From positions 34,906,001 to 34,970,000 of the forward strand of contig OZ024749.1 in NCBI GenBank assembly GCA_964016885.1: DNA of 64,000 bases. Reading direction: 5' to 3'. Below, piece after piece: positions 59,967 through 61,008 of the stretch (position 1 is its first letter; every line of letters starts with the position of its first letter). The position numbers and the translations under genes were made by a program. Below the pieces are notes generated by a model that saw only the letters and a list, made by a program, of their open reading frames with translations, was not told the DNA's origin and made no database searches. This DNA is from Eledone cirrhosa (lineage: Eukaryota).

Positions 59967-60720
59967 TTGCCCTAGGTGACAGGAAGACTCAGCATATATC
60001 AGAAACAATACTGAAGGAAAAGGAAAAAACAATAAAAATAATAATAATAAGGAGCAGGAATGAACTATCAATATAACATCAATATTCACATGTGATGCGT
60101 GTTTCATGATTGATCAGCTCAAGGTATGACTGGTAGTGATCAGGGATGACTCTGGAATTGATAGCTCATCAAATTTATGGATTCTTGAATATATTTATAT
60201 ACCGGGTAAGCCTTTTCAAGGGTGTAGTTATTACTAGGCTTGCTGAACACAGGCCAAAACCACTTGGTGCTGCAATCGGGATTTTACATCTCTCTCCCTC
60301 TCTCTCTCTTTATATATATATATATATTAATTAAAAAGTCATTGGTCTCTAATAATTAGACATCTCAATGAATTGATAAAATATCACTCAAAGAAGCAAT
60401 TTTACATATTAAACTTATGCCAAACCTCAATTTAGAGGAGTATAAGTCAGATAAACTAAAATGGTAAGGAGACGATTATATGAATCAAACAACAGCGGAC
60501 GTTAAAACAATCCTCGATACAGAGTACTCCTAACCCCTACTTGGATTGCCTTAAACGATATCTTGTTAACTTAAATATAAATATATATATATATGTAGGA
60601 GGTGAGTTTTATTGTAGTACAATAAAGCAATGCAGATATCGGATAAGAAGCACTCTACAGTTTGTAGGACTGGAGTATACATAATATAAGATCAAAAGAT
60701 GGTTAAAGGAGTTCCATGTA

Positions 60721-60787
60721 TTTTATTATGCGCATTTCAAAAACAAACATCATCATGCAATAATATTTGTGTTTTCATCAGATAAAA
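60721..60787 (-). ncRNA. Mirror copy of the same type I hammerhead
   Basis: Exact reverse complement of 60861-60927 within a 137 bp-arm inverted repeat. Confidence 0.8.
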
Positions 60788-60860
60788 CAGGAGAACATGA
60801 TATGAAGGCTAAAAAACACTTGTGGATAGTGTTTTTTAGCCTTCATATCATGTTCTCCTG

Positions 60861-60927
60861 TTTTATCTGATGAAAACACAAATATTATTGCATGATGATG
60901 TTTGTTTTTGAAATGCGCATAATAAAA
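60861..60927 (+). ncRNA. Type I hammerhead ribozyme motif with palindromic stem III
   Basis: UUUUAU-CUGAUGA-[long stem II AAACACAAAUAUUAUU gcau GAUGAUGUUUGUUUUU]-GAA-AUGCGCAU-A^AUAAAA; complete core; stem I pairs. Confidence 0.82.
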
Positions 60928-60957
60928 TACATGGAACTCCTTTAACCATCTTTTGAT

Positions 60958-61008
<51 letters not shown>

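Follow-up and report, generated by a model that had tools for sequence, protein, structure and literature searches.

Layout of the palindrome and its surroundings

We analyzed a 64,000-nucleotide stretch of DNA, referred to here as the window, in which a perfect palindrome lies at positions 60684 to 60964. Its arms (60684-60820 and 60828-60964) are exact reverse complements of 137 nt each, separated by a 7-nt spacer, just as an initial annotation of this DNA had described them. The palindrome is the longest inverted repeat in the window, and its mirror symmetry ends exactly at the arm ends, leaving flanks that are not mirrored. The boundaries given by the annotation proved too narrow: the element continues leftward through a tail of approximately 90 nt to about 60593. 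The whole insertion, ending at 60964 on the right, is thus flanked by a (TA)n run on each side. On the left, a remnant of the (TA)n target is recognizable by its sequence at 60582-60594; on the right, a (TA)n target array with a higher-order period of 28/56 nt occupies 60960-61234. The 28-nt units of this array carry a repeated interruption, and a short palindrome (61211-61246) lies at its end.

The insertion consists of two 5'-truncated copies of the 3' end of one element. The left copy (60684-60831, minus strand) is tailed and is referred to as the B arm; it includes the 7-nt spacer, which is element sequence. It matches natural copies over 144 nt upstream of the arm anchor and ends 19 nt short of the point at which arms of this family typically stop (see below). 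The right copy (60828-60964, plus strand) is untailed and is referred to as the A arm; it matches natural copies over 133 nt upstream of the anchor, ends 30 nt short of the stop point, and is 100% identical to arms of copies that carry an open reading frame (ORF), e.g., locus L032. The tail (60593-60683, minus strand) is present only on the left end and lies between two putative start sites of reverse transcription, A at the arm end and B at the tail end. In the tandem copy L033, the same sequence comes after the arm and continues into the ORF.

At the junction (60817-60831), the arms have in common a 4-nt microhomology, 60828-60831, around a mini-hairpin (4-bp stem, 7-nt loop) that is native to the element. 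A search for the window's centre gave one match at 100% among the 40 scored of 102 candidates. The same junction is present at six further loci, which belong to other subfamilies; over the seven loci together, the loop sits on the tailed arm in three and on the untailed arm in four. Judged from these sequences, the window's junction is a recurrent event at the native mini-hairpin rather than a copied unit. The centre can have been shortened at the native microhomology either during joining or via later deletion between the 4-nt repeats of a longer palindrome.

The end of the arm recurs in the window, as the initial annotation had reported. The recurrence is a 16-mer at 48204-48219 (plus strand), a short piece of this element end embedded in (TA)n that represents a separate, minimal insertion; overall, the window has three matches to the arm-end sequence versus 0.15 expected. 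The (TA)n run that holds this stub is adjoined at 48240-48315 (minus strand) by the end of a second hammerhead-bearing element whose stem II base is mispaired (by eye). A small palindrome at 21325-21385, beside (TA)n, comes from the end of the second hammerhead family and has the head-to-head form in miniature. A third type I hammerhead, with a long stem II and a looped stem III, lies at 31941-32021 (plus strand), with a (TA)n run downstream of it. The region 2759-3379 is made of tandem units, each about 98-108 nt, split by (TA)n and sharing a 10-nt word with the arm end; these may be stacked ends of another Penelope-like element.

The source family and its hammerhead motif

Penelope-like elements (PLEs) are the closest relatives of telomerase reverse transcriptase (RT). 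The palindrome is one abortive, stump-sized insertion of a young retrotransposon of this kind, of the Hydra type, with two 5'-truncated ends placed head to head in (TA)n. A 31-mer taken from the arm had 6,002 exact matches in the 3.0-Gb genome by pattern search, compared to none for the reversed control. The matches form mostly outward-facing pairs 200 bp to 6 kb apart, and the long outward-facing pairs contain an ORF. For example, L031 comprises an inverted short copy, an open frame of 821 codons, an arm and a tail, and in L033 the parts follow one another in tandem as arm, tail, ORF, 3' UTR and a second arm, the unit measuring close to 3.9 kb. Partial tandems that form pseudo-LTRs (pLTRs) are found in L033 and in about half of 20 loci selected by ORF. 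Protein matches yielded at least 55 ORFs, of which all 55 scored were full length at 98-100% identity, and at least 51 were free of stop codons. (TA)n flanks occur at nearly all of 63 sampled insertions. The annotation's view of a young, dispersed, (TA)n-associated family and its suggestion of an inverted pLTR end of a PLE are both borne out by these data and by the pairing of A and B arms described below.

The 821-codon frame (P0001) has the RT motifs FDI and YRDDG and, together with LIY..YFG, the layout of an RT followed by a C-terminal GIY-YIG endonuclease. Its N-terminal motifs are RWT (for RWK) and DKT, where relatives have RWK/RWR and DKT/DKS, and the linker CxCX5C as well as CxxC and CxH around conserved E and N are present when read against the description in section 11 of PMC8557442. 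Pfam assigned no family to P0001, and among 17 aligned relatives it found RVT_1 in one protein and GIY-YIG in one; a profile search of PDB returned nothing useful for the element protein. An Argonauta protein is among the 25 relatives, at 37% identity. According to the account of the Hydra clade in PMC8557442, its members have a single ORF with RT and then GIY-YIG, the motifs RWx, DKT, CxCX5C, CxxC and CxH, a hammerhead at the 3' end, and a (TA)n target. The present family has all those motifs, the 3'-end hammerhead and the (TA)n target, which points to the Hydra clade as assessed from protein motifs against the published description, with reference proteins compared by eye. Our initial guess, the Neptune clade, was dropped for Hydra on the motifs listed in PMC8557442. 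We also rejected a DNA transposon with long terminal inverted repeats, or a MITE, given that the ends are unequal and the long copies encode RT.

The family differs in several respects from the clade members described. Its unit is about 3.9 kb, whereas the relevant part of PMC8557442 gives "generally <3 kb" for the clade. Hydra-1_Obim of Octopus bimaculoides is a different family, plainly unlike in protein and hammerhead when its published description is compared by eye; it is given as "no pLTR" in the portion of PMC8557442 that covers it, while the present family has clear pLTRs and tandems, and thousands of near-identical copies. The family may already be catalogued in Repbase or Dfam. At three loci, sister families have the same head-to-head form; judged by eye, two of these three also carry a one-sided tail-like extension.

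Scanning the window on both strands with a strict motif detected two hammerheads, one per arm. Each has the type I layout and AUA triplet that had been annotated, with cores at 60867 (plus strand) and 60781 (minus strand). The plus-strand motif (60859-60929) has a loopless palindromic stem III at 60913-60920 and a predicted cut after 60921; its mirror copy (60719-60789, minus strand) has a predicted cut between 60727 and 60726. The annotated 8-nt stem III stands as given, with a predicted duplex energy of -10.5 kcal/mol. Stem I, annotated as 6 bp, does have six Watson-Crick pairs and is extendable to eight pairs (then G.U and U-A). Stem II, annotated as a G.U-rich helix of ~16 bp, is long and includes three G.U pairs, but it is made of 3 bp, a C.U mismatch and 12 bp.

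An Rfam search reported no hammerhead either at the gathering threshold or at E<=10; therefore, the hammerhead call rests on the motif scan and on covariation. Taken alone, the hammerhead region has a predicted fold no better than shuffles (z = -1.5). The covariation check suggested in the annotation came out in favor of the fold: across 15 related motifs, hand-picked from the motif matches, 97.5% of cells were paired and 9 of 19 pairs had two-sided changes, compared to 0 of 500 shuffles as good and 34-58% paired in slid controls, a lenient control in that the structure was drawn from the same sequences. This comparison of related motifs indicates that the hammerhead fold is conserved. Many other type I hammerhead families flank the loci that we fetched (L051, L063, L072, L089, L092, L094, L103 and L135), and the genome is rich in them.

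Arm pairing and the stop point

We sampled the first 100 exact matches to the 31-mer, which represent 63 insertions from the first 86 Mb of one contig. Forty of the 63 insertions are two-armed, and 39 of these 40 pair an untailed (A) with a tailed (B) end, the other being B+B; the excess of A+B pairs has p = 7e-11 against 0.5. Among the remaining 23 insertions, 10 have an inverted partner detected by blastn and 13 are seemingly single, including L070, which had no blastn rows and was counted with the single-arm loci. In total, 50 of 63 insertions have an inverted partner. Seven of the 10 partners detected by blastn consist of tail only, four of them ending within 5 nt of A, and the untailed arm beside a tail-only partner is up to 1,400 nt long. 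Exceptions to the A+B rule are L034 (B+B) and a few other loci, among them L150 (B+B) and L164 (A+A); the arms of L034 come from two subfamilies. Of 13 two-armed insertions whose arms are unequal, eight have the shorter arm on the tailed side.

The 5' ends of the arms cluster at a single base, which lies 163 nt upstream of the arm anchor and 338 nt before the ATG. Across the genome, 3,972 of 10,297 arms leave the element at this stop point and 6,325 have the templated base; the last letter of both search patterns was fixed, and both counts lose some matches to this. Inspection by eye confirmed a true break in 99 of the first 100 leaving arms. Of the first 100 "templated" arms, 15 proved to have this break as well, the joint being made via a self-complementary end. 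The base after the stop point, read by eye in 100 arms, is C in 44, A in 45 and T in 11; the excess of C in a window of 35% GC fits a cap-templated base, and microhomology may explain part of it. In five of 100 arms, the final 8 nt before the stop point are copied again, the behavior expected of a polymerase that reaches the physical end of its template. In G000:C1:123807503 and four other arms, the last 8 nt are repeated two or three times, which resembles telomerase repeat addition. On the sequence evidence, the stop point is likely the capped 5' end of the RNA, i.e., the transcription start. We rejected a second ribozyme cut at this position, where stem III of this hammerhead cannot pair (by eye).

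The two arms of an insertion agree on the stop point. In 41 two-armed insertions, both arms pass it in 17 and both stop at it in 12, with no mixed pair (0 of 29), and 12 have a shorter arm. When 25 loci were selected by the stop point, 18 were two-armed and none had a partner that passes. The arms of one insertion also share alleles: they differ by 0.87 events on average versus 1.50 when permuted, and none of 100,000 permutations was as low (38 of 41 pairs used; the three with arms under 110 nt were left out). We counted these two results for one shared template. They also fit the copying of one arm from the other, or later gene conversion, and central deletions after insertion can shorten either arm. 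The lengths of arms and the alleles they carry can both be obscured by later deletion or conversion.

Matches that span the predicted hammerhead cut number 6,495, and only 28 of them differ there (13 substitutions, 2 small deletions and 13 breaks), a count that misses any break whose next base is unchanged. The near-absence of breaks rules out cut linear RNA as template; seamless circles would leave no such trace. Among 20 loci selected by ORF, only one (L107) has a long copy that begins at the stop point, and in roughly half the long copy begins well upstream of it. Because the long copies mostly do not start at the stop point, they need longer, multi-unit or circular templates; tandem arrays of the element, a possible source of multi-unit transcripts, exist in the genome.

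Origin of the inverted pairs

How PLEs form tandem and inverted insertions, and what the hammerhead contributes, is stated to be an open question in passages of PMC8557442 and PMC11167929. We consider it probable that both arms are made when the two cut strands of the target prime reverse transcription on one uncleaved RNA and the cDNA ends are then joined. Directly visible in the sequences are the family to which the insertion belongs, the head-to-head arrangement of its ends, the tail on one side, (TA)n as the target and the stop at a single base; the steps that follow are proposed. The element endonuclease would cut both strands of (TA)n; one of the two primers would begin copying at site A and its partner at site B, which lies ~90 nt further in the 3' direction. 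The copy begun at B would displace the copy begun at A, or stall near A and thereby produce a tail-only partner. If the RNA begins in the upstream pLTR, both cDNAs would continue to its 5' end at the stop point and run off there, and joining of the two ends through short microhomology would give palindromes of about 330 bp. The hammerhead would be cargo carried along, and linear RNA that it has cleaved would not serve as template.

Published work bears on several of these steps. The in vitro results reported in PMC11167929 describe a Poseidon PLE protein that cuts and extends both target strands, with two internal RNA starts that bound the tail and with uncleaved RNA as the main substrate; the start site reported there was no different between the two strands, which counts against a split of A and B by strand. 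The promoter of the D. virilis Penelope is placed in the upstream pLTR by PMC2377424, and circular templates are proposed in PMC4209133.

An unlikely alternative is that a single tail-primed cDNA folds back on a small hairpin and copies itself as far as site A, or self-primes on antisense RNA, as junction palindromes were interpreted in the account of PMC3846280. Such copying would yield the alleles common to both arms and their agreement on the stop point, and the window's centre, with its native 4-bp stem and the 7-nt loop on the tailed arm, has the form expected. The same junction, however, has the loop on the untailed arm at four of seven loci, and the tailed arm is often the shorter one or is reduced to tail only beside a far longer untailed arm. 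In addition, a single base lies between two exact ends in 11 of 100 junctions, and junctions with 0-1 nt between exact ends are common; these are not given by snap-back of one cDNA.

It is improbable that each target strand primed on an RNA molecule of its own, with both RNAs bound by a protein dimer. The extension of both strands in vitro and the predicted dimer (PMC11167929) would suit such an arrangement, as would L034 with its arms from two subfamilies. Independent templates, however, would make about half of the informative pairs mixed at the stop point, in contrast to the 0 of 29 found, and would account neither for allele sharing within insertions nor for tail-only partners that stall near site A.

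Very little speaks for the boldest form of the reading in the initial annotation, in which the palindrome is a non-autonomous fold-back element, or ambisense rod-like RNA, which is transcribed, cleaves itself and spreads as a unit. Its perfect arms, the conserved hammerhead fold and the presence of the junction at six other loci are what such a unit would have, yet centres vary from copy to copy, the recurring junction is found in both polarities and in different subfamilies, the ends are unequal because of the tail, and both arms are without the putative start point. Both arms point outward, and read-through from either side would yield the antisense arm first. The hairpin of both arms has a predicted energy of -224 kcal/mol, compared to about -16 when a hammerhead region is folded alone, so trapping of the ribozyme within the hairpin is predicted. 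Least credible of all is a fold-back artefact of sequencing or assembly, a test raised in the annotation. The arms are identical, and none of the listed contigs bridges the window's own junction, where flank depth is low. Against an artefact, the flanks are unmirrored, the tail is one-sided, and thousands of like structures have varied centres; moreover, inversion joints of this family, the junction at the stop point among them, are numerous in independent short-read contigs from up to three samples.

Returning to priming by both target strands on one RNA, we tentatively extend it, as a possibility with less in its favor than the origin of the arms themselves, to PLEs in general. They would integrate by double priming on one RNA, with two reverse transcriptases, each primed from one strand of the cut (TA)n, starting at fixed sites ~90 nt apart, which would account for head-to-head insertions with a single tail. 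Linear capped RNA would give palindromes of ~330 bp that end at the transcription start, hammerhead-cut circularized RNA, which is seamless and has no 5' end, would give long copies of more than one unit, and the thousands of perfect hairpins in the host genome would be a by-product. The predictions are two starts, one RNA 5' end and no use of cut linear RNA. They are base-exact and distinguish double priming from self-priming, and the family provides thousands of fresh insertions and at least 51 open ORFs. As an object, the palindrome is an unremarkable outcome of PLE insertion, and the family is a useful test bed for the mechanism.

The layout is already known from the literature, where inverted copies carrying a tail on one side, targeting of (TA)n and pairs of hammerheads on opposite strands are each described. 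Inverted pLTR insertions with a one-sided tail are described for Penelope of Drosophila virilis, Pen families of Adineta vaga and Naiad (in parts of PMC2377424, PMC3846280 and PMC8557442), and opposite-strand hammerhead pairs 100-700 bp apart are described for Schistosoma in a section of PMC4209133. The present insertion shares with the inverted insertions the head-to-head 5'-truncated copies, the tail at one end, the palindromic junction and the microhomology; it differs in that the tail is ~90 nt rather than 30-40 and both copies are stumps without an ORF. PAc, the Poseidon element of Anolis carolinensis, is similar in its two internal RT starts that bound the tail, in the cutting and extension of both strands, and in that hammerhead cleavage is dispensable. 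It belongs to another clade, and the passages of PMC11167929 that treat its two starts do not link them to the two strands of one event; site A of the present family has TA-like homology to the target, unlike PAc. Non-LTR retrozymes (bioRxiv 10.64898/2026.07.22.740005; see also PMC7229834) resemble the window's insertion in having a type I hammerhead with palindromic stem III, in being non-coding and in deriving from PLE ends; they are head-to-tail tandems, whereas the window has a head-to-head pair belonging to an autonomous family. A literature search that covered few subscription papers found no statement of the A+B rule or of a stop at the transcription start. What is new here is the family statistics: the A+B rule, the single-base stop point, the agreement of the two arms of an insertion on passing it, and the near-absence of stops at the ribozyme cut.

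The ADAR or Dicer substrate envisaged in the annotation could arise only incidentally, from host transcripts that read through the site. If the host is an octopod, as the Argonauta relative and a SINE suggest, thousands of perfect hairpins of 130-165 bp could feed A-to-I editing or small-RNA pathways. A gene for a WD40 protein lies at 44509-46210 (minus strand) in two open frames; a possible first exon of this gene, ending at a GT near 61804, would place the palindrome in its 5' intron. A short exon-like frame at 20903-21022 (minus strand), to which Pfam gave no family, resembles WTAP/Fl(2)d. Two tRNA genes are located at 62992-63063 (plus strand) and 63429-63500 (minus strand).
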